Shown: positions 1,647 to 46,949, counted from the first letter of the stretch. The stretch is DNA of 64,000 nucleotides from Nitrososphaeraceae archaeon (GCA_025922715.1 JAICHH010000001.1:1266-65265), one strand, 5' to 3'. Numbers and translations are program-made. Notes: a model not told the origin generated them from the sequence alone.

Positions 1647-2717
1647 ATGACAAAAAAAATCCGGGTTGCAATAGTTGGGGTGGGAAACTGTGCTTCAGCG
1701 CTAGTTCAAGGAATCCACTATTACAAGTCAGTAAAGGAGAAGGATTCCATTGGTTTGACTGCATATGATTTGGATGGTTATACCCCTATCGACATTGAAT
1801 TTGTAGCAGCTTTTGATGTTTCAGATTCAAAAGTTGGCCTAGATCTTTCTGAGGCAATTTTTTCTAATCCGAATAACGCTAAAAAAATCACCGATGTTAA
1901 TAATTTGGATGTTAAAGTAAATAAAGGAAAAGTTTTAGACGGCGTAGGTAGACATCTTGCAGAAAAAATAAACTTATCCAATTATCCTACATCCAATATA
2001 TCAGAAATATTGAAAGATTCCCAAACCGATATCCTTTTGAATTATTTGCCCGTTGGAAGTCGGGAAGCAACAAAATTCTATGCAGAACAGTGCTTGGAAG
2101 CAGGCGTTTCATTTATCAATGCAATTCCGGTTTTTATCGCATCTGAGCCTCAATGGCAACAGTCATTTAAAGATAAGAATGTTTTGTGTGCAGGCGATGA
2201 TGTTATGAGTCAAGTAGGAGCCACAGTTGTGCATAAAACATTAGTAAAATTATTTATTGACAGAGGTGTTAAAGTGGATGAAACATACCAATTGAACATA
2301 GGTGGTGATATGGATTTTTATAATATGCTCGATACAGAGAGATTAGAGGATAAAAGAATAAGTAAAACCAGTGCAATTGAAGCAATGTCTCCATATTCTA
2401 TTCCTATGAGGATAGGCCCATCTGATTTTGTTGAATCCTTAAAAAATGATAAAGTATGCTATATTAATATTCGTGGTAAAAAATTTGGAAATATTCCAAT
2501 AGAACTAGATCTGAAACTCCGAGTAGCTGATGCATATAATAGTGCTGGAATAATGATCGATGCAATACGTGCAACCAAAATAGGACTAGATAGAGGATTA
2601 TCAGGAGTGTTAGAAAGTGTTTCGGCATATTGTTTTAAACATCCTCCAATCCAAATGTCGTATACTCAAGCAAAAGAAAAATTTCTGAGATTTATTAATG
2701 GAGAACTAGACACATAA
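1647..2717 (+). CDS. ino1: myo-inositol-1-phosphate synthase
   Basis: IRVAIVGVGNCASALVQG NAD-binding start, NYLPVGS, GDD, YQLNIGGDMDF, SKT. Confidence 0.93.
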   Translation: MTKKIRVAIVGVGNCASALVQGIHYYKSVKEKDSIGLTAYDLDGYTPIDIEFVAAFDVSDSKVGLDLSEAIFSNPNNAKKITDVNNLDVKVNKGKVLDGVGRHLAEKINLSNYPTSNISEILKDSQTDILLNYLPVGSREATKFYAEQCLEAGVSFINAIPVFIASEPQWQQSFKDKNVLCAGDDVMSQVGATVVHKTLVKLFIDRGVKVDETYQLNIGGDMDFYNMLDTERLEDKRISKTSAIEAMSPYSIPMRIGPSDFVESLKNDKVCYINIRGKKFGNIPIELDLKLRVADAYNSAGIMIDAIRATKIGLDRGLSGVLESVSAYCFKHPPIQMSYTQAKEKFLRFINGELDT

Positions 2718-2939
2718 TAATTTATTTAAAATTATGTTGTTTGTTTATTTTTTATCTATCAACCAAATAAAATTATATGACAAACTCCAAACTCAAGATC
2801 TTCTTCATTTTTAAATTCAGTAGGGCTAGTTTCATCATTGTTTGCCAAAATGCAGTGAATTATATAAAATAAAAAGTTATCTGTTCTATTTTATTACAGA
2901 TATAGATTTATTATTGCAAAAGTTGTATTCATTTAAATG

Positions 2940-3710
2940 TCAGTGGTCATTTGTAGCATCATTCCACAAGTAGTTAAAATAATCTTTTGCATATCCTGCT
3001 AGCCCCGGATGCTCTGCCCAGATTGCAATGGGTTCAGATTTACCCTTTCTATTGCCCTCTTCTCCTAATAAGATTAAAACTTGAGTGCCATCACCGATAA
3101 CTCCTCCACCAAACAAATTATCTTTAATTCTTACATCTGCGATTCTTGAAATAGTTTTTATAATTTCTGTACTTGTTTCTTCTGAAACAAGAACTACAAT
3201 TCTTATACCTTTGTCATGTAAACTTCGTAACATAGGTTGTAATGGTTTAGCTATTTCCTGTGCTATTTGTGGTAACGCTATTAACAATTCTCTTTGGCTA
3301 TTCTGAATGATCTCGCTTACTTTACCTGCAATGTTATAAAACCCTCTTACTACCCATATTTCTGGTTTTTCTTTTATTCCACTTTTTTCATAAATAGGCA
3401 TTAGTTCATTTCTAATGATTTCCTCATTACTTTTAATTTCATTTTCTTTTTGGAGCCTTATTGCATCTAATGCAGTAGAAGGAGATTTTGGAAAAAATGT
3501 TTGTGGCCTAGAACTATCTGATTCAAGCCAAACTTTATTTTCCAAACTATTCAATACTTCATAAATTTTTGAGTAGGGAACACCTGAGGTTTTACTTATA
3601 TCTGCTGCTGTCATAGAACCATGTTCTAATAATGATAAATATACTTTAATTTCATAACTTGTCAAGCCAAGACTTTCCATTGATTTTCTCGACTTGTCGG
3701 TAATATTCAT
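2940..3710 (-). CDS. TrmB-family (sugar-sensing type) transcriptional regulator
   Basis: LGLTSYEIKVYLSLL..ISKTSGVPYSKIYEVLNSLENKVW wHTH plus C-terminal effector domain; the ATG at 3710 is a more likely start than 3752. Confidence 0.88.
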   Translation of the reverse strand: MNITDKSRKSMESLGLTSYEIKVYLSLLEHGSMTAADISKTSGVPYSKIYEVLNSLENKVWLESDSSRPQTFFPKSPSTALDAIRLQKENEIKSNEEIIRNELMPIYEKSGIKEKPEIWVVRGFYNIAGKVSEIIQNSQRELLIALPQIAQEIAKPLQPMLRSLHDKGIRIVVLVSEETSTEIIKTISRIADVRIKDNLFGGGVIGDGTQVLILLGEEGNRKGKSEPIAIWAEHPGLAGYAKDYFNYLWNDATNDH

Positions 3711-4320
3711 TGAACCAATTTTAATTGTTTCAAGTAATATATGTATGTTCAATTATATATTAATGTTAAACCGTTAAACTTTCTATTTTTCGATCTTTTT
3801 GTTATTATGAAAATGTTTTTAGCATTTTTGAAGTTACATTTTGCATTCTCGTTTAATACTTCAATGTACAATATAGATCAATCAAATTAAATAGAGTAAT
3901 CTTCTACCATATTTTTTATTTAGTATATTAATAGAGTTAAGAATAGCTTTTTGCAATCTCTTATACTTTCTTAAACCAAATAGATATCCTTAAAATAGGA
4001 ATTGTTTCTGTTAATTTTTTACAAAATCTACAAATCCTTACATTATGTGTAAGGGAAACTGATATGATATTCAAAATAGAATTTTTTTGAAAGACATACC
4101 AATTAATGCACCTATTACTCTATAATTGAATTTGTGAATGTTATTTCGCTTAATCATAGGATTATTTCTCATGAAGTATAAATTCCAAGAAAATTTAAAA
4201 TGTCAATTTTTCTACTATCTTTCAAATTTTGTATAATAATTAATTATATAATCAAAAAAGAGGAAATTATACTAAGTTTATCTTTTAAATAAGGGAGAAT
4301 TAATTATTTTCTGATCAAGG

Positions 4321-4332
4321 AAAGTTTAATAA
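4321..4332 (+). promoter_or_regulatory. BRE/TATA promoter of aEF-2 (probably leaderless)
   Basis: AAAGTTTAATAA ~25-35 nt upstream of ATG 4356. Confidence 0.5.
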
Positions 4333-4355
4333 TCTATTTAATTTTTTTTTTCTAT

Positions 4356-6557
4356 ATGCCTAAATTCAAATCAACTCAAGATATTATTAGAATTATTGAT
4401 ACTAAAGATCAAATACGTAATTTTGGTGTTATTGCTCATGTAGATCACGGTAAAACTACCATGAGTGATAGTCTTTTAGCTGCATCAGGAATTATTTCCC
4501 CTTCTGTAGCAGGACAAGCATTAGCTCTCGATTCAATGAAGCTTGAACAAAATAGGCAGATGACTATCAGAGGAGCTAATGTAACACTATTTTATGAGCA
4601 CGAAGGTAAGGAATATGTTATAAATATGATCGATACACCTGGGCACATTGATTTTACTGGTAGAGTTACAAGAGCTTTACGTGCAATTGACGGGGTAGTA
4701 GTTGTTTCTGACTCTGTAGAAGGTATCATGACTCAGACTGAAACTGTAACAAGACAAGCTCTAGAGGAAAGAGTTAGACCTGTCCTTTATATAAATAAAA
4801 TAGATCGATTGGTAAAGGAATTACGTCTAGATCCACCTGCAATGCAAAAATGGCTATCAAATATTATCGCAGAGTTCAATAAATTAATAGATATTTATGC
4901 AGAACCAGAATTGAAAGAGAAATGGAAGGTAAGCATACAAGCCAATAATGTAGCCTTTGGATCTGCTAAAGATAGATGGGGATTTAATTTTAAGGTAGCA
5001 CAAAAAAAAGGGTTCAGTTTCAAAGATGTTTATGATGCATATACTTCTGATGATCCATCTAAGATCAAAGCTCTTTCTGAGAAAGTACCCCTTCATGAAG
5101 CAGTTCTAGGTATGGTTGTTCAACATCATCCTCCGCCTTATATAGCTCAAAAATATAGAATCCCAAAGATATGGCCAGGAGATCTAAATTCTGATATTGG
5201 GAAGTCATTGGTAAATTGTGATGAAAAAGGTCCAGCAGTTATGATGGTGACTACAATTAATGTGGATCCACAAGCTGGCAGAATAGCTACAGGAAGATTA
5301 TTTTCAGGTACTATTAAAGATGGAGATGAGGTTTATTTAATTGATGCCAAACGGCCTGGGAAAGTTCAATCCGTAAACATCTATATGGGAAATACTAGAG
5401 AAGTTGTGAGTGTTATACCTGCTGGTAATATTCCTGCTCTTTTAGGTTTAGATTATGCCGTTGCTGGTGAAACAATTTCTAGCGTTAAAAATATAGTTGC
5501 TTTTGAATCCATTAAATATGTTTCTGAACCTGTTGTAACAATTGCTGTAGAAACTAAACATCCAAAAGATCTTCCTAAGCTCGTAGAAGCTCTTCGTAAA
5601 ATAACAGTTGAAGATCCAAATCTTATTATCAAAATAAATGAAGAAAGTGGAGAAACATTAATGGCTGGAATGGGAGTATTACATCTTGAGATCGCTACAT
5701 CACTGTTACAAGAAGCAGGTCTATCTATAACTACCTCCCAACCTTTAATCAATTATAGAGAAACGATTCGTTCCAAAGGCGGACCAATCATGAGTAAATC
5801 TCCTAATAGACATAATAAAATATTCATGAGAGTAGAACCACTTAAAGACGATATTATTGAAATGATTAAAACTGGACACATAAAGGAAGATATGGATAAA
5901 AAGGAATTAGCCAAAATCCTCAGAGAAAAGGGATGGAATGCAGATGAAGCGAGGAATGTTAGCGCTATTGATCCATCAGGAAATATGTTGATCGATGAAA
6001 CTAAAGGTGTTCAATTTATTCAAGAATCAATGGACTCTATCAAATCAGGATTTGATGACGTAGTGCATTCAGGAGCCCTAGCACATGAGACTCTACGAGG
6101 TGTGAAATTTGTTCTTAACCATTTTGTGCCACACGAAGACCCTGCTCATAGAGGATTAGCACAATTGATGCCGGCAACAAGAAGATCGATGTTGGGCTCT
6201 ATGTTAATTGCAGATCCAGTACTTTTGGAACCTATACTAGGAATCGAAGTAAAATGTCCTCAAGAGCAAATAGGTACAGTAGCAGGAATTTTATCCGGAA
6301 AACGAGGTAAATTATTAAATGTTGACCAAAAAGGTGTTATAGCTATTATGCAAGGTGAGGTTCCAGCTTCTGAAACTTTTGATTTATCAGAGGTTATGCG
6401 TGGCGGGACAGCAGGTAAAGCAATGTGGAGTACTTACTTTAAAAGTTGGCAAGCCGTTCCTCAGTCTGTTATAAGAACACTTATTGCTGACGTACGAAAA
6501 AGAAAAGGTCTTAATCCAGAACCTCCAAGTCCTGATGAATTTATTGACAAAGAATAA
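4356..6557 (+). CDS. fusA: translation elongation factor aEF-2
   Basis: AHVDHGKTT, DTPGH, NKID, KSPNRHN, diphthamide loop HEDPAHRG. Confidence 0.98.
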   Translation: MPKFKSTQDIIRIIDTKDQIRNFGVIAHVDHGKTTMSDSLLAASGIISPSVAGQALALDSMKLEQNRQMTIRGANVTLFYEHEGKEYVINMIDTPGHIDFTGRVTRALRAIDGVVVVSDSVEGIMTQTETVTRQALEERVRPVLYINKIDRLVKELRLDPPAMQKWLSNIIAEFNKLIDIYAEPELKEKWKVSIQANNVAFGSAKDRWGFNFKVAQKKGFSFKDVYDAYTSDDPSKIKALSEKVPLHEAVLGMVVQHHPPPYIAQKYRIPKIWPGDLNSDIGKSLVNCDEKGPAVMMVTTINVDPQAGRIATGRLFSGTIKDGDEVYLIDAKRPGKVQSVNIYMGNTREVVSVIPAGNIPALLGLDYAVAGETISSVKNIVAFESIKYVSEPVVTIAVETKHPKDLPKLVEALRKITVEDPNLIIKINEESGETLMAGMGVLHLEIATSLLQEAGLSITTSQPLINYRETIRSKGGPIMSKSPNRHNKIFMRVEPLKDDIIEMIKTGHIKEDMDKKELAKILREKGWNADEARNVSAIDPSGNMLIDETKGVQFIQESMDSIKSGFDDVVHSGALAHETLRGVKFVLNHFVPHEDPAHRGLAQLMPATRRSMLGSMLIADPVLLEPILGIEVKCPQEQIGTVAGILSGKRGKLLNVDQKGVIAIMQGEVPASETFDLSEVMRGGTAGKAMWSTYFKSWQAVPQSVIRTLIADVRKRKGLNPEPPSPDEFIDKE

Positions 6558-6631
6558 TCTAGCAAACCTAAATATTTTTTATACCATTCATATTATTTTT
6601 ATATTTTGGTATTAAACGGATTTTACACAAT

Positions 6632-7819
6632 TTAGTAATTCCAATGTATCAAACTAGTTGCTTTGTCATGTAATTTTTTATCAAAAGTTTTTATATCTAC
6701 CTCTTTAAAGGGATTTATTTTTTCTAACACCGGTGGAGCTCCATTGTTATCTAATGTTGATTTATTTTTTAGTTCTTCAAGTATCTTTTCTTGTAACTTT
6801 GGATGACATATTCTACTATGATATATACATCCTAGTGATCCATTAATCATCTCTTTCAAATGTGCTTCTCCTTTGTCCTCATGAAAGTGCGGATTTCTGG
6901 TTTCAACCTGCATTACCTCTACACCTTTATCCATTGCCTCTTGATTTTCTGTAGGTAATATTCCACCAAATTGTTCAAGTAGATTCACAATTTCATAAGT
7001 TTCTACAGAGAACCCTGAAGAAAAATTAAGTAATTCTGCAAGTTTGATAGACATACAATGTTCACCTGAATTTCCAGTTCGCATTACTTCAGTTTCAAAT
7101 CCAGTATAATATGAAATAAGAGAATTTAAATAGTAATTAGTTATTTCAGAAACTCTACCCCATTTTGAAAAATAAATTCCGCTTTCAGAAATCTTGGGTT
7201 TATAAATCCAAGAAACTCTTATCATCTTATAAGGTGTGTCGGACATTGCAATTCCTGATGCAAAAATTTTTACATATTCATTGACAGCACCAGGTACATA
7301 ATTATCTCCATCAATGAAACCGACATATTCTTTTTGAGCCATTTTGGCAAGAAGCATTCCTAATACCATTCCTTCTGCCTTGCCGTTTCTAATGAGTTGA
7401 TCAGAACCTATTAACTCATTGTAATTTACTTCTCTTAAGGTCTCAGCAAGACCTTCATCTCGTTGATGAATAATTAAGGCATTTTTGTTAGCAAATCGAT
7501 TAAATTGTTGAAGTGACTCTTTCTCTAATTTGTATCTATCAACTGGTTGGCGAGGACTATTTGAAACTATAATAGTCATACAGTCATGAGGAATTCCACT
7601 TAAAACACCCTCTAAGAGCTTCAATCTTTCGTTTTTTATGGGAATGACTATGGCCATCTTACTTTCTATCTCTGAAATTTGCTCATTGCCAACTCCGGTA
7701 ATATTTTCTGACACTTTTTTTCCTTTATCTGAACCAGAATCAAGCTCAAAGACCCGCTGGACACCATGAAGACTTATTGATCCAAATCTTTCAGTAAATC
7801 TAGGTAAATCTAATTTCAT
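6632..7819 (-). CDS. mpgS: mannosyl-3-phosphoglycerate synthase (GT55)
   Basis: ERFGSI, LEGVLSGIPHDC, RNGKAEGM, GFIDGDNYVPGAVNEY, WGRVSE, ETRNPHFHE. Confidence 0.93.
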   Translation of the reverse strand: MKLDLPRFTERFGSISLHGVQRVFELDSGSDKGKKVSENITGVGNEQISEIESKMAIVIPIKNERLKLLEGVLSGIPHDCMTIIVSNSPRQPVDRYKLEKESLQQFNRFANKNALIIHQRDEGLAETLREVNYNELIGSDQLIRNGKAEGMVLGMLLAKMAQKEYVGFIDGDNYVPGAVNEYVKIFASGIAMSDTPYKMIRVSWIYKPKISESGIYFSKWGRVSEITNYYLNSLISYYTGFETEVMRTGNSGEHCMSIKLAELLNFSSGFSVETYEIVNLLEQFGGILPTENQEAMDKGVEVMQVETRNPHFHEDKGEAHLKEMINGSLGCIYHSRICHPKLQEKILEELKNKSTLDNNGAPPVLEKINPFKEVDIKTFDKKLHDKATSLIHWNY

Positions 7820-7901
7820 ATATTTCTCTCCTTTTTAGTAAGAACCAAATTAAAACGAGACTTACATATATTTAAATCAGATAATATTGTAATAATAAAT
7901 T

Positions 7902-8072
7902 TTAATTGTAGAAATGATTTAGTATATCTTTATGTACTATGTTTCTAAAATTATTATCAATTTTTAGACTCTCTTTTTCTATATTTTCATCATCAAGTAC
8001 TCTAAGTAATTTAATCAACGATTTTTCGTCAATAAATGATTTTAATACCCTCTCGAATGATTCGTCCTTCAA
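7902..8072 (-). CDS. possible 56-aa hypothetical protein or gene remnant (MKDESFERVLKSFIDEKSLIKLLRVLD...)
   Basis: Manually translated open frame, TTG 8072 to TAA 7902, protein-like composition; below the ORF-track cutoff. Confidence 0.3.
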   Translation of the reverse strand: MKDESFERVLKSFIDEKSLIKLLRVLDDENIEKESLKIDNNFRNIVHKDILNHFYN

Positions 8073-8246
8073 TTTAGTAAAGAATTGATACTATTTTATT
8101 TAACTGATATTCAATCTGATAACACTAGAATTTTCCCTTTTTTTTTTAAATAAAATTGCTCTAGTTTTTAACTATACATATGTTCTCAATTAATTTGAAG
8201 AGATAAATTTGTATGAATATAAAACTTAATGAACTTTAAATATGTT

Positions 8247-9068
8247 TTAAATGATTCGATTTTTAAAAGTCTTTGCAATTATAAATGGTGCAATCATTAA
8301 AGCAGGAATACTTATAACAATAAATACAGTTTGAAACGATGCTAATATCGATATAGTTGTGGTTCCAGCACTAAATCCAAAAATTGCTGCTATTATACTA
8401 CCTGCACAAGTAGGACATCCAATAAATAATCCACATGATGCACCAATACCTCCTATAACTCTTGATTTATTATTATTATTATTTTTTAATCTTTTTATCA
8501 TAAAAGTATTTATTGAAATATTAAAGCCTACTAAGAAAGAAACAATAAATACTAATGCTATATTAATTGGAATTAGAAAGATAAAAAAATATTCAGCTAA
8601 ATAAACATATGTTATAGGTACATACCCTATTGTGTTACAACATGGAATTATTTTTATTGAGGGATTAAATTTAGTATCTTCAAAAGAATTTGATCTATTA
8701 TCAGTAAAGACAAATATCTGAGAAAGAAAACTAAAAATAATACCATAAAAAATTCCAGATAATATCATTATTAAAATGTATCTTTTTTCTTTAAATGGTA
8801 AGGAAATGAAATATTTTAATTTTTTTTTTGATGGTTCATTTGAAACATAACAATTCCACAAACCGAAACAAATAGCTATTGATGAAATAAACGTTATTAT
8901 TAGTATTCCTATTGATATGTTAAATAAGACAGGTGTAAACATGATTATTTCATTAAAATTTGGATTAGTAAATTTTGAATAAAAAATATAAGAAAATATT
9001 AATGATGAAACGCTAAAGATTATTATTCTTAGACCTTTATTCAATAAAATATTCTCTTTTATCCTCAT
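8247..9068 (-). CDS. multi-pass membrane protein with Cys motifs (CC; CGLFIGCPTC)
   Basis: About 6 hydrophobic segments; IIPCC loop and GASCGLFIGCPTCAG. Confidence 0.75.
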   Translation of the reverse strand: MRIKENILLNKGLRIIIFSVSSLIFSYIFYSKFTNPNFNEIIMFTPVLFNISIGILIITFISSIAICFGLWNCYVSNEPSKKKLKYFISLPFKEKRYILIMILSGIFYGIIFSFLSQIFVFTDNRSNSFEDTKFNPSIKIIPCCNTIGYVPITYVYLAEYFFIFLIPINIALVFIVSFLVGFNISINTFMIKRLKNNNNNKSRVIGGIGASCGLFIGCPTCAGSIIAAIFGFSAGTTTISILASFQTVFIVISIPALMIAPFIIAKTFKNRII

Positions 9069-37812: not shown

Positions 37813-39450
37813 ATGATATTTCACATGCGTTACCTAGATCTAAAAAGAAAAATTCAAGAGATTAGAATTAATGCTATCAAAGGAATTGCTGAAGCAGGAT
37901 CCGGACACCCAGGAGCCTCTTTTTCTGCTGCTGAAATCATGGGTGTATTATATTTTAGGGAATTACGTCATGATCCTTCAAATCCCACCTGGGCAAGAAG
38001 AGATTATTTTATTAATTCAAAAGGACACTCGGCTCCAGGTTACTATGCAACGTTGGCAGTAGCGGGATATTTTCCAAAAAATGAAATGAAAGATTTAAGG
38101 AAATTTGGATCTAGATTGCAAGGTCATCCTGTAAGGTATTCAAAACTTTTAGAACATCATTCTGTACCCGGAGTAGAATATTCTGGAGGCTCAGAAGGTA
38201 TAGGTCTTTCTGTTTCAATTGGAATTGCTTTGGCAAATGTTATTGATAATAAAGATAACAATGTGTATGTTTTACTAGGTGATGGTGAGACAAATGAAGG
38301 TCAAGTATGGGAAGCTGCAATGACTGCACCTAAATTTAAATTAGATAATCTTGTAGCAATTTTGGATCGAAATAAAATTCAACAAGACGGGTTTACCGAG
38401 GATATAATGCCTCTGGATCCAGTACGTGATAAATGGGTGGCTTTTAACTGGAATGTAATAGAAATTAATGGACACAAAGTTGAACAAATAATGGATGCAT
38501 TGAACAAAGCTAGTGAAATCAAGGATAAACCTACTATTATAATTGCAAATACCGTAAAAGGAAATGGGATTAAACATATGGCTAATAATCCTCAATGGCA
38601 TGGTAAAGCACCTCATAATTTGCATATTCCATTATTAATCGAAGAATTAGAAGGAGAATATATGATAGCACCCTCAATAATCGCAGGGGAAAAAGAAAAT
38701 TATGAAGAAAAAATAAAAAAAGTTGAAAGAGGTGGAGCAGACATTATACATTTAGATGTGATGGATGGAATATTTGTCCCTAATATTACGTTTTTAGCAG
38801 ATACAATTAAAAAATTAAGACCAATAACCAATATACCCTTTGATGCACATCTAATGATTGAAAAACCATACGACCATATTGAGGAATATATAAACGCTGG
38901 TTGTGATATTATTACAATTCATGCTGAAACTTGTGATAATGAGAAATTCTGCTACATTCGAGAGAAGGTAATGTCTGCAGGAATAAGTTTAGGTATAGCT
39001 ATTAATCCACAAACTGAACTTCCAGAATGGACATTTTCTTATTTAAACGATATTGATGTCATAATAGTTATGTCTGTAAATCCTGGCTTTTCTGGACAAA
39101 AATTTATTCCTGATATAACATCCAAGATTAGCAAATTGAATATGACTTTAAAAAGGAGGGGATACAAAGGATATATTGAAGCTGATGGAGGTATTGATGC
39201 TTCTACTGTTCAAAGTGTATATGACGCTGGAGCACGAATTATGGTAGCAGGTAGCGCAGTTTTTTCTAATTCAGATATAAATACAGCAATTCTACAGTTA
39301 AAACATAAAACTAATGTCACGTTAGAAAGAAACCTATTAAAAAAAGCTGATGAAAATAGTACAAGAAAAGATTGGATTATTGCACGTAAGCACATTTTGA
39401 TACCTGTTGCTAATGAGCTGGGAATAGAAGATGAACTTAACCGACTTTGA
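37813..39450 (+). CDS. fusion of transketolase N-terminal subunit and ribulose-phosphate 3-epimerase
   Basis: SGHPG, SKGH, LQGHP, GDGETNEG, WHGKAP, then IAPSI, HLDVMDG.FVPN, DAHLMI, MSVNPGFSGQKF, DGG, VAGSAVF. Confidence 0.93.
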   Translation: MIFHMRYLDLKRKIQEIRINAIKGIAEAGSGHPGASFSAAEIMGVLYFRELRHDPSNPTWARRDYFINSKGHSAPGYYATLAVAGYFPKNEMKDLRKFGSRLQGHPVRYSKLLEHHSVPGVEYSGGSEGIGLSVSIGIALANVIDNKDNNVYVLLGDGETNEGQVWEAAMTAPKFKLDNLVAILDRNKIQQDGFTEDIMPLDPVRDKWVAFNWNVIEINGHKVEQIMDALNKASEIKDKPTIIIANTVKGNGIKHMANNPQWHGKAPHNLHIPLLIEELEGEYMIAPSIIAGEKENYEEKIKKVERGGADIIHLDVMDGIFVPNITFLADTIKKLRPITNIPFDAHLMIEKPYDHIEEYINAGCDIITIHAETCDNEKFCYIREKVMSAGISLGIAINPQTELPEWTFSYLNDIDVIIVMSVNPGFSGQKFIPDITSKISKLNMTLKRRGYKGYIEADGGIDASTVQSVYDAGARIMVAGSAVFSNSDINTAILQLKHKTNVTLERNLLKKADENSTRKDWIIARKHILIPVANELGIEDELNRL

Positions 39451-41101: not shown

Positions 41102-42688
41102 TTACACTTTGAGCAACTTAATAACCTTCTTTGGTATATCTTCTACTCTACTAGCTAGAGTTTTATTGTAATTAAGATATTTTAAATTGTGACCAATATT
41201 GATAAGATCATTTAAATCTTTTCCTAATCCCAGGGCTACCATGTGGATAGACAAATTTCTGTAGGTTAAAACCATTTCTTTAACTGCATCATAATTTGAA
41301 GGCTCTCCATCCGTTAATGTAATCATTATCTCGGGTTTGAATGATTTAATAAAAGGTAAAAGAATAGTGTATATTTCAGCTAATGGTGTACCGCCACTTG
41401 CTCTTATTTGAGCTAATCTTCTGGCATTTACAAGAGACCATGGAATTTTCGGTGGTTTAACTAGCCAACATTTCACTTTTTTTGCTTCAGTACTAAATGC
41501 ATAGACTGCAAAATCAATCCCTAAGTAACTAAGGGCTTCACATAACGCTACGGTCGCTTGTTTATATTTTAGTTCAATTTCTTCTATACTACTAGAATGA
41601 TCAAGTAAAATGACAACTTTTGTTCTGATTGATATTTTAAAGTCGCTTAGAAAAGGTCTAGTCTGAGAATCAATATATGTTTCTGTATCTAATTCATCGC
41701 CTTGTTCTTGATGAACTTCTACCCACCCAGTTTTCCAATCTCTAAATGCTGATTTAATTTTTTGAATTAGTTCTATGTCATAGATTTCTGATTCATTAAT
41801 ATCCATTCTATTCGGAACACTAATGTCAAAGTTTTCTAAACTGTCATATCCTTTTGTTTCTGATTTCTTACTTTCTTTTACTAAAGTTTCATATTCTTTT
41901 ACAACATCCTTTCCTTCGATAATTTCTTTTATTGCTTTGTCAAATTCTTTATTGACTAGTTTTGATTTTATTATTTTTTCTAGTTGCTTAAATAAATCTA
42001 ATTTGTTCATTGCCAGACCTATACTAGATCGAGGAGTAGTCAAAGGAATTGATAATAAAGGATCTATTTGTAATATTTTTACAATTTCTCTGACCTTGTC
42101 ATAAATCCAGTCTGTTCCTAGTCTTTTATCAAGAGCTTCTCTGATGCACTCATTGGCAACGTCTGTGGCTTCTCGTACCTTGTCAAATTCATTTCCAAAT
42201 AGTTCCCCTTTAATATAACCAGTAAGAAAAAATTGTGAAAAAGCTTCGATTATTTTATGTCTTCCATATATTGTATTTAGAAGAGGTTTTGACAACCAAG
42301 ACATACTCTCATAAAAAATTATTTCATTTGTCATACCTTGCCATCCACGTAAACCTAATATTTCGATTCTTTTTGTTTCTATAATATTAAGAATAAATCC
42401 ATATGCATGCTCCTGACGAGAGACTTTTACTTTAGAAGTGTGTCTTATTCTCATTGCTTCATACCATAAAGAAACTCTCCATTGTCTATATCTTTGAAAT
42501 TCTTCACCATGAAAATAATTTAATGTTGGTATGATAATCTGTTGTTTTTCAATATCTGTCTGAGGAGGTTTATCTTTAGAAAGTGTAACAATGACTTTTG
42601 CATTATTAGACCACCTACGTGCAAGAAATGTAGCTATGTCTAGCAGAATATCATTTCTTAAATATTTTTTATTATTGTCCAATATCAC
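41102..42688 (-). CDS. vWA-domain protein (NorD/CbbO/CobT-like adaptor)
   Basis: N-terminal ILNIIETKRIE helix; G.ELD; MIDAS DHSSS, GGTP, TDGEP at the C-terminus. Confidence 0.85.
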   Translation of the reverse strand: MILDNNKKYLRNDILLDIATFLARRWSNNAKVIVTLSKDKPPQTDIEKQQIIIPTLNYFHGEEFQRYRQWRVSLWYEAMRIRHTSKVKVSRQEHAYGFILNIIETKRIEILGLRGWQGMTNEIIFYESMSWLSKPLLNTIYGRHKIIEAFSQFFLTGYIKGELFGNEFDKVREATDVANECIREALDKRLGTDWIYDKVREIVKILQIDPLLSIPLTTPRSSIGLAMNKLDLFKQLEKIIKSKLVNKEFDKAIKEIIEGKDVVKEYETLVKESKKSETKGYDSLENFDISVPNRMDINESEIYDIELIQKIKSAFRDWKTGWVEVHQEQGDELDTETYIDSQTRPFLSDFKISIRTKVVILLDHSSSIEEIELKYKQATVALCEALSYLGIDFAVYAFSTEAKKVKCWLVKPPKIPWSLVNARRLAQIRASGGTPLAEIYTILLPFIKSFKPEIMITLTDGEPSNYDAVKEMVLTYRNLSIHMVALGLGKDLNDLINIGHNLKYLNYNKTLASRVEDIPKKVIKLLKV

Positions 42689-42692
42689 ATTA

Positions 42693-43502
42693 TCAACCGA
42701 ATATCGAAATAACCATATCCATGACTTTTCTATACTCTACATCTCCCCATTGATTATAGGCATTTGCAAAAACTATTTCAGCTGCAAGCTTAGGGTCGGT
42801 ACCAATATTGAGTAATTTAGTAAAGGCAATTGTTTCTCTTAAACTAGGCCCATAAAATAGTTCCTCTACTCCCGCTGCTTCTCTTAATGCTCTTGCTAAT
42901 TTTATAGCACGTTGAATATTAATTAAATTGTCATTATTTACTAAAGTATGTTGTTTAATAATTTCTAGTTCTGTTTCCTCTGGTGGGTAATCTAAACTTA
43001 GCCTAATTGGGAATCTGCTTAAAAGTTGAGGTGGTAATTCTTTAGTACCAACGTGCGATAAAGGATTAATTGTAGCAACTACAAACCATCCTTCACTAGC
43101 TTTAATAATCTGACCTTCTGCTTCTTTCAATATTATTTGTCTCCTATCATCTAGAGCCTCATCTAATCTTAAGAGCATATCTGGTTCTGCAGCATTTAAT
43201 TCATCTAAATAAAGAATTCCTCCTTCTTTCATAGACTTTACCAAAATTCCCTCCACAAAGTTGATTTCACCATTCTCTATAGTTTTAGTTCCCACTAAAT
43301 GAGATTCTCTTGTTCTAAGACTAAAGTTTACTGAAAAAATATTCTTATTAAGTTCAGAGGCAAATTTTCTTGCCAACGATGTTTTTCCTGTTCCCTTAGG
43401 ACCAATTATAAGAGCAAAAAGATTTATTTTGTAAGCTTTTTTTAATATATCCATAGATTCATTCCAGTCTAAATAATTGATGGTCTCCACTACATTACTC
43501 AT
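42693..43502 (-). CDS. MoxR-type AAA+ ATPase, CbbQ/NirQ/NorQ subfamily
   Basis: GPKGTGKT, ILYLDELN, LDDRR, ATINP..GTKELP..LLSRF, LDYP, GPSLRE. Confidence 0.9.
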   Translation of the reverse strand: MSNVVETINYLDWNESMDILKKAYKINLFALIIGPKGTGKTSLARKFASELNKNIFSVNFSLRTRESHLVGTKTIENGEINFVEGILVKSMKEGGILYLDELNAAEPDMLLRLDEALDDRRQIILKEAEGQIIKASEGWFVVATINPLSHVGTKELPPQLLSRFPIRLSLDYPPEETELEIIKQHTLVNNDNLINIQRAIKLARALREAAGVEELFYGPSLRETIAFTKLLNIGTDPKLAAEIVFANAYNQWGDVEYRKVMDMVISIFG

Positions 43503-43548
43503 TGTTAATATTACAGATTGAGTTTAATTTATAAATTAACTAAATAAG

Positions 43549-44976
43549 TTAGAAATTATCTTTTGAATGAATAAACTTCTTTTTATTATTTATATAATCA
43601 GTTAATAACATCTTATCTATTGAATCTGGATTAATATAATATGATCTTCCTTTTACGTATTTTTCCATTTCATTTACATAACTCAACATAGAGTTTTCTT
43701 CACTTATCATTATAGTATCAATCTGAATTCCTTTTTTGTAACATTTTTTGGCTTCAATTATAGTACGTTCTCCTATAAATTGATCTACTTGTCTATATCG
43801 ATAACACAAATAAACTAATGCGCCTGAATGTATATCTAAATTCATTTCATGACTTTTCTTAATAGAATTTATTGTATTTTTATCAGGAATATAAAAGTGA
43901 GAGTAGGGTCTTTGTGAGAGGATTTTTTGTTGCTCTTTGTCATTATCAATAAAACATGCGCTCGGGTGGCCATCAGTAATAAGTACTATTCTTTTATTTT
44001 CTACAGGATTTTTTTGTAACATTTTTTTAGCTAGTCTTAATGCCGCTTGATAATTTGTATAATGAAGAAAATCAACCCCAGGTTCAAACGTTTTTAAATA
44101 GGGAATATCTAGTGGATTTATTTTAGAAGCTAATGCACCGAATCCTATCATATTAATTATATCTGAAGGAAAATATTTTTTATGTAGTATATACAAAGAC
44201 CATAATGCTCTCTTAGCAGCTTCTATTCGACTTAAATCCCCGTACAATGTCGAATATCTCATTGTGGAACTGAGATCTATACAATATACTATCGAAACTC
44301 TAACGTCTTGGATAGTTTCATATTCTTCAAAATCTTCAATATCCAATTTTATTGGTATTTCGACTTTACCATTTTCTCTGGCGAGCCTTTGAATTGAATT
44401 TAATAATGAATTTGGAATATTAATTAATCTGATATCATCACCAATTTCGTATTTTTTTGTTGTATCTAATAAAAGAGACCCATATCCAAAGTTTTTGGTT
44501 TCATGTATTCCAAAATCTCCTTTTTTTAGCACTTTCAAAATATCTTGCAGTATTTTTTCACCAATCTTCGCGAATCCTTTACTGCTTAACCATTTTTCAG
44601 AATTTTTTAAATAACCTTCCCTTATAAGGTGAGTAATAATCGGTAGATTCGATTTTACATTGCTATCTGATGGGTTTGAATCATTTTTATAGTTAAAATC
44701 GTTTTCTTTGTTAAATTTATTCTTCTTTCCTTTTTTTTTAATAATTTCTTGTAAAGTTTGTTCTAATTCTTGCACAGAGGGTGTTTTCTCTTTAAGAATT
44801 TCTCTTCCGAGAGATTTTAGTAAGTCATCCAGTATATCATTATTTATGTTATGTTCTCCTTGATCTTCAAACTTTTTATTTGAAGTTTTATCTGATTCTT
44901 TTGTAAAAGGAAAATAAATAAAATCTATTGATTTATTAGTGAACATTTTCATATATCCCCTTTTCTCTCCTATCAA
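43549..44976 (-). CDS. vWA-domain protein (partner of the chelatase-like ATPase)
   Basis: G.HET, YEIGDD, DLSSTM, HYTNYQAAL, ITDGHPSA. Confidence 0.82.
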   Translation of the reverse strand: MIGEKRGYMKMFTNKSIDFIYFPFTKESDKTSNKKFEDQGEHNINNDILDDLLKSLGREILKEKTPSVQELEQTLQEIIKKKGKKNKFNKENDFNYKNDSNPSDSNVKSNLPIITHLIREGYLKNSEKWLSSKGFAKIGEKILQDILKVLKKGDFGIHETKNFGYGSLLLDTTKKYEIGDDIRLINIPNSLLNSIQRLARENGKVEIPIKLDIEDFEEYETIQDVRVSIVYCIDLSSTMRYSTLYGDLSRIEAAKRALWSLYILHKKYFPSDIINMIGFGALASKINPLDIPYLKTFEPGVDFLHYTNYQAALRLAKKMLQKNPVENKRIVLITDGHPSACFIDNDKEQQKILSQRPYSHFYIPDKNTINSIKKSHEMNLDIHSGALVYLCYRYRQVDQFIGERTIIEAKKCYKKGIQIDTIMISEENSMLSYVNEMEKYVKGRSYYINPDSIDKMLLTDYINNKKKFIHSKDNF

Positions 44977-46600
44977 TAATTGGATTATCTAAATTCCTTA
45001 ACCCTTCCAGTATTAACTCTAGTATCGATGCTCTATATTCTTTATCTTGTTTATTAGAAAACGCTAACCCATTAAGATTAATTCGGTTATATTCTATATT
45101 TTTAATAAAAAAATTTTTTTCATTTTCATCTATATCTATCATCCTGTCAACTATTTTTAAAAGAGTCGGAAAATTTTTCAATTGATTTTCATAATTATCA
45201 TGTGAATTGCTGCTGTTCTTATCTCCTAAAAGATTTTGTGAGACTATAAATTTCTTATTCTTACTAAATTCATTTTTTAACAGCATAATGTCTTCGCCCT
45301 GTATGTTTTGGATATATTCTCTCGCTGTAATCTTTATTGCTTCTGCAATCAATTTATCTAAAATATCTAATCTATTTTGATTATTATCATCTAATTCAGA
45401 TAATTCAAATTTCGATGTTTGATGTATACTATTAATATCTGAAAATCTAGGTACGGCCTTTACGTTATAAATTAAAGATCTTACTCGCTCAGCCTCACTA
45501 ATTATAGCTTCAGTGGAATGAACCGACATTCTCACACTTACTCCTTTGTCTTGGTTAATGTCTGAATTTGTTCTAGCTAATTGTGTGATCGTGGCAAGGG
45601 CTTTCAAAACGAATATAGGTAAAATAACATTTTTTGGTTCGCTTAGTTTTATTTCTTGAATTATTATAAGCATTTCATCAATTAGTTTTACAGGATAACG
45701 TGTCTTAATATGACTTCGAAGTCTATCAAATAAAGGTTCTATTATTTTTCCAGAATGAGTATAATCAATCGGATTTGAAGTAGCTATTATTTTGAGATCA
45801 GGTTCAAAGTAAACAGGATATGAACCGGTAGTAAATTTACCTTCTTGCAATACGCTTAATAAAGAAACTTGTTTTCTAGGATCTAAAACAGGTAATTCAT
45901 CAATACACAATATTCCATGTCTGGCTTGTAAGAGCTGACCTGGTGAGTATGATTCTATATTATAAATCTCAACTCCTTTTTTTGCTATTTTTATGGCATC
46001 AATTTGTCCTACTAAATCTTTAACTGAAATATCGGGAGTTGCTAAAATGTATCTGTATCTTTCAGATCCACTAATCCAATCTATTTTAGTATCTAATCCA
46101 TTATTCCTAATAGTATCTTCGGTTTCTTTTGAAACGGTGAACCTAGGAGAATAGTGTATAATTTCTTTGTCTTCTAATAAAGAAATCATTTGTTCAGGTC
46201 TAATTGTTGTTGGAATGTCATTTGTTAAAGACTTTCTAATTATGGGTATTGGTGATAATAAATTTTGAGATATAGCTTCAGATAATTTCGTTTTCGCTTG
46301 ACCTATTTGTCCTACTAATAACAGATCATGACCAGCCAGAATACCTCTATTTATTGATGGTATTATGTCATCATCATATCCGATGATTCCACGGTATGGA
46401 TTTATACCTTTTTTAAGAAGCATTATTAAATTCCCTCTAATTTGATTATCGACTTTAGCATGCCTGTAGTTTATTTCGAGAAGATCTTTTAATGTCTTAA
46501 TTTCTTTATAATTATCTGGAACACCAGGGAATATTTCATTATATGTGGGATCAGAGTTGTAAGAGTCTAAAACCATTTTCTCAATATCTTTAAAATTCAA
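44936..46600 (-). CDS. Mg-chelatase-I-like AAA+ ATPase
   Basis: GIIGYD, Walker A variant GQIGQAKT, LATPD.SV.DLVG, ILCIDELP.L, ATSNP.DYT..GKII.PL.DR, GVSVR. Confidence 0.82.
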   Translation of the reverse strand: MNFKDIEKMVLDSYNSDPTYNEIFPGVPDNYKEIKTLKDLLEINYRHAKVDNQIRGNLIMLLKKGINPYRGIIGYDDDIIPSINRGILAGHDLLLVGQIGQAKTKLSEAISQNLLSPIPIIRKSLTNDIPTTIRPEQMISLLEDKEIIHYSPRFTVSKETEDTIRNNGLDTKIDWISGSERYRYILATPDISVKDLVGQIDAIKIAKKGVEIYNIESYSPGQLLQARHGILCIDELPVLDPRKQVSLLSVLQEGKFTTGSYPVYFEPDLKIIATSNPIDYTHSGKIIEPLFDRLRSHIKTRYPVKLIDEMLIIIQEIKLSEPKNVILPIFVLKALATITQLARTNSDINQDKGVSVRMSVHSTEAIISEAERVRSLIYNVKAVPRFSDINSIHQTSKFELSELDDNNQNRLDILDKLIAEAIKITAREYIQNIQGEDIMLLKNEFSKNKKFIVSQNLLGDKNSSNSHDNYENQLKNFPTLLKIVDRMIDIDENEKNFFIKNIEYNRINLNGLAFSNKQDKEYRASILELILEGLRNLDNPIIDRREKGIYENVH

Positions 46601-46949
46601 TAGATTTCTTGCTTACTAAAACAAAATTTAAACATTGTTAAAAGAATTAGATAATAGTATTCATTCGTAATTATTTATACTAATAAGAAAATTAAGGATT
46701 TTCTTTAATCATTCTATTTCTTAAACTCTTGAAAATTCCCTTTATTAACTTTTCATTATGTTTTTATAATCTTTTTAATTTATAGTTATATTGGATATAT
46801 CATTTTAACAAAAATACTTACTAGGTAAATTTTATAAAATATCTAATTTGACTTAAGTTATTTAAAACGAATATTTGAGATTATAAACAATTACGTTAAC
46901 TTAACTCCTAGTATGATTTTTATTTAGGTCTAGACTCTAGTTTTAAGAG

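Follow-up and report, generated by a model that had tools for sequence, protein, structure and literature searches.

Four genes in a genome of an ammonia-oxidising archaeon (AOA) raise the question of whether two neighbouring pairs, each consisting of an AAA+ ATPase and a von Willebrand factor A (vWA) protein, form one machine or two. The genes lie in a 64,000-nt stretch of DNA from a Nitrososphaeraceae archaeon (GCA_025922715.1 JAICHH010000001.1:1266-65265), the whole of which is called the window here and which comes from a soil-type AOA. A sequence-only reading of this DNA had described four tightly packed genes in the order AAA+, vWA, AAA+, vWA, had assigned them to two unrelated modules, and had proposed that these modules were joined into one transcription unit and act together. 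We designate AAA1 (P0001) and vWA1 (P0002), at 43549-46600, as pair 1, and AAA2 (P0003) and vWA2 (P0004), at 41102-43502, as pair 2. The open reading frame (ORF) listing, translations and Pfam matches agreed with the gene order, motifs and spacings, all four genes being co-oriented on the minus strand, and Pfam/NCBIfam, PDB and relative searches likewise indicated two unrelated AAA+/vWA modules. Both fall under the broad definition of MoxR systems (Snider and Houry 2006), in which a helix-2-insert AAA+ gene stands directly beside a vWA gene. The proposed joint transcription and joint action did not find support, given the synteny of the whole block, an element in the spacer between the pairs, the independent occurrence of the pairs and the lineages in which they are unlinked. 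We propose that the locus probably holds two independent AAA+/vWA remodelling modules, side by side in an old and conserved housekeeping block.

The distribution of the pairs was surveyed in a class sample of 121 genomes and in 80 genomes, representing 18 genera, of the window's own family (Nitrososphaeraceae, f1); f2 and f3 denote the other two AOA families and f4-f6 the non-AOA relatives. The tallies include two unpublished genomes (G154 and G196), whose genera (g51 and g54) are also covered by other genomes, and no claim is made on them alone. Orthologues of AAA2 and vWA2, always adjacent, were present in 56 of 56 genomes of f1-f3 and in 0 of the 64 others of the class sample. Pair 2 and amoA showed identical patterns across the 121 genomes, with both present in 57 and neither in 64. 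Pair 1 was found in 80/80 genomes of the window's family and pair 2 in 79/80. Clear orthologues of pair 1 were seen in 16 of the 120 other class genomes sampled and in 15 of 55 sampled f2 and f3 genomes; pair 2 was kept in about 40 f2/f3 genomes in which pair 1 was not found. Because the phyletic patterns differ, pair 2 tracking amoA whereas pair 1 is patchy in AOA and also found in Actinomycetota, the two modules are likely to be independent of each other.

The linkage of the two pairs was then followed through the family and beyond it. Coordinates place vWA2 downstream of AAA1, on the same strand and at a distance of 2.3 kb (3.0-3.1 kb for two genomes), in 15 of the 18 genera, and tblastn confirmed the four-gene order on the 20 family loci that were fetched, so that the adjacency is not confined to this genome. 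The exceptions are g56, two complete genomes of which (G133 and G198) have about 1 Mb between the pairs, g2, in which they are 8-17 kb apart, and g46, in which they lie on different contigs. The pairs were unlinked in all 16 f2/f3 loci examined. All rearrangement breakpoints fall between the pairs and never inside a pair. In f2/f3, pair 1 is still divergent from S13-S4-GlmS; pair 2 is sometimes still close to the transketolase and transaldolase genes (Tkt-Tal) in other families (G050, G074 and G012), and in G116 Tkt-Tal directly abuts vWA1. This pattern suggests that the tandem is an old arrangement that was broken later. Within the family, the whole block of about 14 kb, running from Tkt-Tkt-Tal through the four genes to S13-S4-HTH-GlmS, is syntenic in the 20 loci. 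Since the neighbouring housekeeping genes are equally syntenic, the adjacency of the pairs is not specific evidence for a functional link; it is no stronger functional evidence than the adjacency of transaldolase and vWA2. We found no published discussion of the AAA+/vWA tandem in the literature searched.

A side observation concerns the position next to pair 1 in f2, where a co-oriented ORF of about 100 aa resembling a winged helix-turn-helix (wHTH) protein follows pair 1 in several loci (L002, L003, L005, L006, L008-L010, L012-L014 and L017; for example L008:6415-6708, minus strand). In the window's family this position is occupied by pair 2, and a search with one f2 query yielded no homologue of the wHTH-like gene in the window, the 20 family loci or five family genomes.

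Gene spacing, compared in 21 loci, points to tight coupling inside each pair. In 19 of the 21, AAA1 and vWA1 share 4-47 nt, the other two being a locus with a 7-nt gap and L130, in which vWA1 is truncated. The separation of AAA2 and vWA2 ranges from -11 to +58 nt, two genomes excepted. The spacer between vWA1 and AAA2 measures 40-112 nt in 19 of 20 loci, the exception being L125, where the start call is doubtful. For the window, taking the longest starts gives the corresponding values of a 41-nt overlap, a 4-nt gap and a 46-nt gap. Since it is the pair and not the quartet that is tightly coupled, and since the pairs are unlinked in many lineages, the spacing too argues for independent modules. 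Some loci have irregular spacing. In L130 (G134:C44) a 550-nt gap follows AAA1 and, besides the truncation of vWA1, vWA2 is split between two frames, damage that could reflect gene decay or an assembly error in this metagenome-assembled genome (5 Mb, 81% complete). In L115 (G197) and L116 (G167), which belong to the same genus, an insertion of 734-860 nt without a long sense ORF lies between AAA2 and vWA2 and may be a small mobile element or its relic.

Each pair appears to be preceded by a promoter-like element of its own. The sequence (A)ATGTTTAAAT or a close variant stands 25-35 nt ahead of the AAA1 start in all 20 family loci, and in the window the corresponding AATGTTTAAATT is the sole exact match. 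By archaeal promoter geometry, this motif fits a B recognition element (BRE)/TATA promoter giving a leaderless or short-leader transcript. The spacer between the pairs contains TTAATTTATAAATTAA, a perfect 16-nt palindrome at 43524-43539. Its centre lies about 29 nt upstream of the AAA2 ATG; it has no second copy in the window and is conserved in each of the six further loci from this genus. Spacers of other genera carry TTAGTTTTTATGTAT-like elements. The motif GTTTTTAT occurs in 7 of 15 genus representatives, a count reached in 0 of 500 shuffles, a control that ignores the relatedness of the genomes. The TATA-like or T-rich character of the spacer element would suit an internal promoter driving pair 2, a terminator ending pair 1, or a combination of the two. 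Pair 2 thus probably has a promoter of its own in the 46-nt spacer of the window, and the two pairs may be separate transcription units. Besides its TATA-like character, the palindrome could be a site for a dimeric regulator.

Pair 2 was identified through sequence and structure comparisons. AAA2 matches Pfam AAA_5 at 91 bits and carries the motifs GPKGTGKT and LYLDELN. It aligns over its full length with NorQ (PDB 9qhd_A; 3.4e-22, residues 10-269 against 16-268) and also matches CbbQ (PDB 5c3c; 2.6e-19); among PDB sequences the highest score goes to midasin, whose AAA modules reach 225 bits when four of them are summed. vWA2 consists of a helical N-terminal domain (about residues 1-280), a linker and a C-terminal vWA domain. 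Its Pfam VWA score of 22.1 bits is below the gathering cut-off of 23.8, and the domain is backed by the fold results. [quoted passage not shown] The AlphaFold2 (AF2) model has a mean pLDDT of 81, and its top structural match is the vWA domain of NorD (Foldseek, 4.6e-9). VIA-align superposed 207-227 residues of the two with Z scores of 20.0-20.6, from model residue 283-300 to 528, an alignment that takes in the stretch before the vWA core and does not cover the N-terminal domain. The runners-up were the MIDAS domain of MDN1/Rea1 (Z 18-19) and generic vWA domains (Z 17.6 or lower). In sequence the relationship is faint: phmmer of vWA2 against the PDB found nothing, and a profile of 20 vWA2 orthologues met NorD at a marginal E=0.12, inside the vWA domain only.

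Pair 2 is thus an orphan NorQ/NorD-like pair of AOA. NorQ and NorD of denitrifying bacteria, a MoxR ATPase of the CGN subfamily and a vWA protein, insert the non-haem iron into nitric oxide reductase (cNOR) (PDB 9qh4-9qhg; PMC13036017, PMC9976466). The resemblance of pair 2 to them lies in the ATPase, which has a single module, measures about 270 aa and is similar to NorQ from end to end, in the vWA protein, where a linker connects an N-terminal domain to a C-terminal vWA domain whose DxSxS-T-D MIDAS is complete, and in abutting genes, as in norQ-norD. Pair 2 differs in that vWA2 is barely related to NorD in sequence and in that no norB or norC gene lies beside it. This negative holds for the flanks in the window, for 14 loci from other AOA families and for the 20 family loci, and no COX1-family gene was found near pair 2 in any of these. 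Homologues of norQ and norD without norB and norC have been discussed in AOA genomes since 2006 (PMC1403158, PMC4084955, PMC6790972), and two of these papers (PMC4084955, PMC6790972) report that AOA genomes have no norB or norC. The description of the system as undescribed, made in the sequence-only reading, accordingly goes too far.

Pair 2 also resembles two other known systems. With the CbbQ/CbbO Rubisco activase (PDB 5c3c, 6l1q) it shares the match of AAA2 to CbbQ and the logic of an ATPase with a vWA adaptor; it differs in that no Rubisco large subunit (PF00016) was found in the window's genome, which is 78% complete. CbbO is about 770 aa long, and vWA2 is shorter at 528 aa. Midasin (Rea1), a eukaryotic AAA+ ring, has AAA modules that match AAA2 and, as MDN1/Rea1, the MIDAS domain that is the second-best structural match of vWA2. 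It is, however, one giant polypeptide of six fused modules acting on pre-60S ribosomes, in contrast to the separate small proteins encoded here, and kinship between MoxR proteins and midasin is a general property of the clade (PMC3495828).

What pair 2 acts on can be narrowed by its distribution. The COX1 family (PF00115) is represented by essentially one gene in each AOA genome and is also present in the non-AOA families f4-f6, which lack pair 2. Because of this presence in f4-f6 without pair 2, the terminal oxidase is a poor candidate for a pair 2 client, and a haem-copper oxidase client is disfavoured. A more specific proposal is that pair 2 matures the archaeal ammonia monooxygenase (AMO) complex or another AOA copper enzyme (NirK or a multicopper oxidase), inserting or guarding a metal site in the way that NorQD serves the non-haem iron of cNOR. 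The proposal concerns the client of pair 2 only and is compatible with two independent modules. It draws on the exact coincidence of pair 2 with amoA, on the haem-copper oxidases of relatives without pair 2, on the NorD-like fold and intact MIDAS of vWA2 and on the reported expression of a NorD homologue (PMC6790972). The coincidence with amoA, however, goes back to a single origin and is common to many AOA-core genes, and no amo, nirK or multicopper oxidase gene directly adjoins pair 2 in the window or in the 14 loci of other AOA families. A further point in its favour is a gene distance: amoA lies about 10 kb from pair 2 in most Nitrosopumilaceae-type genomes (G047, G050, G004, G096, G024, G086, G115 and about 20 more), the sole recurrent nearness of pair 2 to a nitrification gene that we saw. 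Against this, the interval is filled with translation and housekeeping genes and the linkage is absent in f1, f3, G066 and G032; the proximity is probably a matter of block synteny. We regard maturation of a copper enzyme by pair 2 as a tentative possibility. Our best guess for the client is an AOA-specific enzyme, possibly AMO or another copper enzyme, on the strength of a co-distribution with a single origin.

The surroundings of pair 2 in Nitrosopumilaceae-type genomes comprise, before the pair, genes for S15, a DHH protein, Pcc1, SerRS, S3Ae, an RNA-binding protein and a GGR-type flavoprotein, and, after it, genes for a pyridoxal phosphate (PLP) enzyme, an ASCH protein and TBP. The GGR flavoprotein was considered as a client and rejected, as it is not at that position in f1 and f3.

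The alternative that the four genes are one operon, with two modules that cooperate on a single AOA metalloenzyme either successively or within one complex, has to be weighed against the independence of the two modules. It can claim the four-gene order kept in 15 of the 18 genera, the common orientation and short gaps, the near-universal presence of both pairs in the family and the lack of a known client nearby. Several further considerations weigh against independence. The tandem has been retained in those genera though protein identity is only 50-65%, and retention at that divergence could reflect selection for co-expression. The spacer motif could be a regulator site that coordinates both pairs, and transcription from the predicted AAA1 promoter may read through into pair 2. 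The match between pair 2 and amoA goes back in essence to a single event, the emergence of AOA, and is a pattern common to many genes. The surveyed genomes are samples and related to one another, and the window's genome is incomplete. Against a single machine stand several observations: unrelated surrounding genes are equally syntenic, the pairs are set apart by a conserved spacer whose element resembles a promoter or terminator, pair 2 persists in the AOA genomes in which pair 1 was not found, and pair 1 occurs alone in Actinomycetota and apart from pair 2 in g56, g2, f2 and f3. We consider the one-operon explanation unlikely, and cooperation between the pairs in any form to have only a slim chance. 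More doubtful still is that the pairs form a maturation machine, two-step or mixed, for a copper enzyme specific to AOA such as AMO, with the palindrome as a shared regulatory site. If true, this reading would explain the head-to-tail retention in most Nitrososphaeraceae.

Two independent modules remain the preferred explanation, and for pair 1 the relatives lie partly outside the archaea. AAA1 gives weak and overlapping Pfam matches to AAA_5 (37 bits), AAA_PrkA (30 bits), Sigma54_activat (28 bits), AAA_3 (27.4 bits) and Mg_chelatase (21 bits); it is above the cut-offs of AAA_PrkA (25 bits) and AAA_3 (27 bits), the latter being borderline. Its translation contains GQIGQAKT and ILCIDELP, with extensions of about 90 aa at the N-terminus and about 200 helical aa at the C-terminus. 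All 18 orthologues compared have Walker A, Walker B (D234 E235), R293 and GVSVR357 unchanged. With the P-loop, the Walker B Asp-Glu, R293 and the GVSVR sensor motif all kept, AAA1 looks like an active ATPase. Its AF2 model has a pTM of 0.80, and Foldseek found no match to it at E<=0.001, the weak matches being members of the AAA+ clade (RavA, BchI, ComM, MoxR 2r44 and NorQ). vWA1 matches Pfam VWA_2, with DLSST...ITDGHPS in a vWA domain in its C-terminal half, and D234, S236, S237, T238 and T334-D335-G336 are invariant in 21 orthologues; a profile of vWA1 orthologues met nothing meaningful in the PDB. The start codons of both genes allow two readings. The longest ORF of AAA1 begins at a TTG 25 nt past the TATA-like motif and the protein atlas entry begins at an ATG, codon 9, which leaves the true start ambiguous. 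vWA1 starts either at the TTG at 44976 or at an ATG 24 nt further in, and the inner ATG, giving a 17-nt overlap with AAA1 as in relatives, may be the one used.

An exhaustive search recovered relatives of AAA1 of about 470-510 aa with 33-38% identity. A scan with one genome per species found the family across Actinomycetota, in Micromonospora, Nocardia, Mycobacterium, Rhodococcus, Arthrobacter and Thermobifida. In 24 of 25 actinobacterial loci a vWA gene of about 650 aa, matching VWA_2, directly follows the ATPase gene, and its product is homologous to vWA1 (BLASTP, 9e-26). The ATPase and vWA genes are the sole conserved neighbours in these 25 loci, and pair 2 is not beside pair 1. The archaeal and actinobacterial pairs share the gene order, the identity of the ATPases over about 400 residues and the motifs [LF]LG..GQAKT and ANP.DYT. 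They differ in the C-terminal extension of the ATPase, which is longer in the archaeon (554 against about 470-480 aa in total), and in the vWA protein, which is shorter there (475 against about 650 aa) and has a MIDAS of DxSxT rather than DxSxS. The actinobacterial pair is presumably of the M. tuberculosis Rv0958/Rv0959 type. Rv0958 has been described as a 'magnesium chelatase' with a sigma-54 interaction domain (PMC7092591), and the Pfam pattern of AAA1 is the same as that described for it. Judged by sequence, pair 1 belongs to a widespread, uncharacterised ATPase/vWA family that also occurs in Actinomycetota, and no published discussion of pair 1 in AOA was found in the literature searched. 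Two side observations were made on the bacterial loci. An ORF of about 400 aa without a family assignment (cluster c6) stands immediately before the ATPase gene in 7 of the 25. Mycobacterium is represented by L082 and L091, and in L091 (Mycobacterium sp. PS03-16) the region upstream of the AAA1 homologue (1889-8374) encodes purH, a GGDEF protein and a Ser/Thr kinase fused to an LpqN lipoprotein domain, purH being about 3 kb upstream.

A role for pair 1 as the ChlI/ChlD-type motor of a class I tetrapyrrole chelatase, inserting Mg, Co or Ni, is near refuted and very improbable: sources name close homologues 'magnesium chelatase subunit I' or label named relatives (Micromonospora, Planctomycetota) 'magnesium chelatase', there are weak Mg_chelatase and BchD matches and BchI is among the fold matches, but AAA1 scores 20.2 bits with TIGR02031 against a cut-off of 499.55, TIGR02030 is not among the matches listed for it, its architecture differs through the long N- and C-terminal extensions, and no CobN/ChlH gene (PF02514) was found in the window's genome or in 40 genomes of the family with a completeness of 95% or more, although control genomes matched. 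Equally improbable, and largely refuted through missing partner domains, is a MoxR-vWA conflict or defence system, or a stress system like PrkA-YeaH-SpoVR, in one or both pairs, for although AAA1 is above the AAA_PrkA cut-off and AAA2 falls just short of that of bpMoxR (26.6 against 27 bits), PADLOC gave only generic weak AAA matches, neither a PrkA C-terminal domain (PF06798) nor SpoVR (PF04293) was found in 5 family genomes while control genomes matched, there is no third effector gene, and the genes are core, syntenic and flanked by housekeeping genes, unlike mobile defence islands.

The features of the locus are listed below. The absence of genes for Rubisco, NorBC and a chelatase large subunit from the window, pointed out in the sequence-only reading, was borne out: the flanks are housekeeping genes, and the genome check it had called for found neither rbcL (PF00016) nor cobN (PF02514) in the 78%-complete genome. 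Converging on vWA2 are a transketolase-N/ribulose-phosphate-epimerase fusion, transketolase C and transaldolase; diverging from AAA1 are ribosomal proteins S13 and S4, an HTH protein and GlmS. The fusion is a single ORF of 545 aa at 37813-39450 on the plus strand, which joins the N-terminal half of transketolase (residues 12-267) to a ribulose-phosphate 3-epimerase domain present in full (285-484); in G116 these halves of the fusion are matched by two distinct segments. The host assembly comprises 1.8 Mb in 216 contigs and contains archaeal amoA, and 'Nitrososphaeraceae archaeon' is also the name that sources give to close AAA1 homologues.

Features of the AAA+/vWA locus, with positions counted from the first nucleotide of the window
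Feature	Position	Strand	Description
AAA1 (P0001)	44936-46600	-	554 aa; divergent ATPase of the ChlI/MoxR clade; P-loop GQIGQAKT
vWA1 (P0002)	43549-44976	-	475 aa; vWA partner of AAA1; MIDAS DLSST...TDG
Spacer between the pairs	43503-43548	-	46 nt; contains palindrome TTAATTTATAAATTAA
AAA2 (P0003)	42693-43502	-	269 aa; NorQ/CbbQ-type (CGN subfamily) MoxR ATPase
vWA2 (P0004)	41102-42688	-	528 aa; NorD-like; C-terminal vWA, MIDAS DHSSS...GGT...TDG
BRE/TATA-like motif AATGTTTAAATT	46625-46636	-	ends 25 nt upstream of the AAA1 start

With two independent modules, and on the model of NorQD (PMC13036017), each ATPase would assemble into a hexameric ring and take hold of the vWA protein of its own pair. 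The partner's MIDAS site together with its N-terminal domain would hold the client protein, and ATP hydrolysis would twist or stretch the vWA partner so that the client is opened for cofactor insertion or assembly. Each pair would be translationally coupled internally, and the clients of the two pairs need not be identical. That of pair 2 would be an AOA-specific enzyme, for example the AMO complex or another copper enzyme, and not the terminal oxidase.

The adjacency of the two pairs alone should not be taken as a four-component machine, and no new kind of system is revealed by the locus. We know of no described assembly route for the copper enzymes of AOA. A large share of nitrification worldwide is the work of these archaea, and few chaperone candidates belong to the AOA core, the orphan NorQ/NorD-like pair among them. 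To what has been reported on this pair our analysis adds that its distribution follows amoA exactly and not the terminal oxidase, and that every sampled genome of the soil family Nitrososphaeraceae has a second ATPase/vWA pair, unrelated to the first and usually standing beside it.

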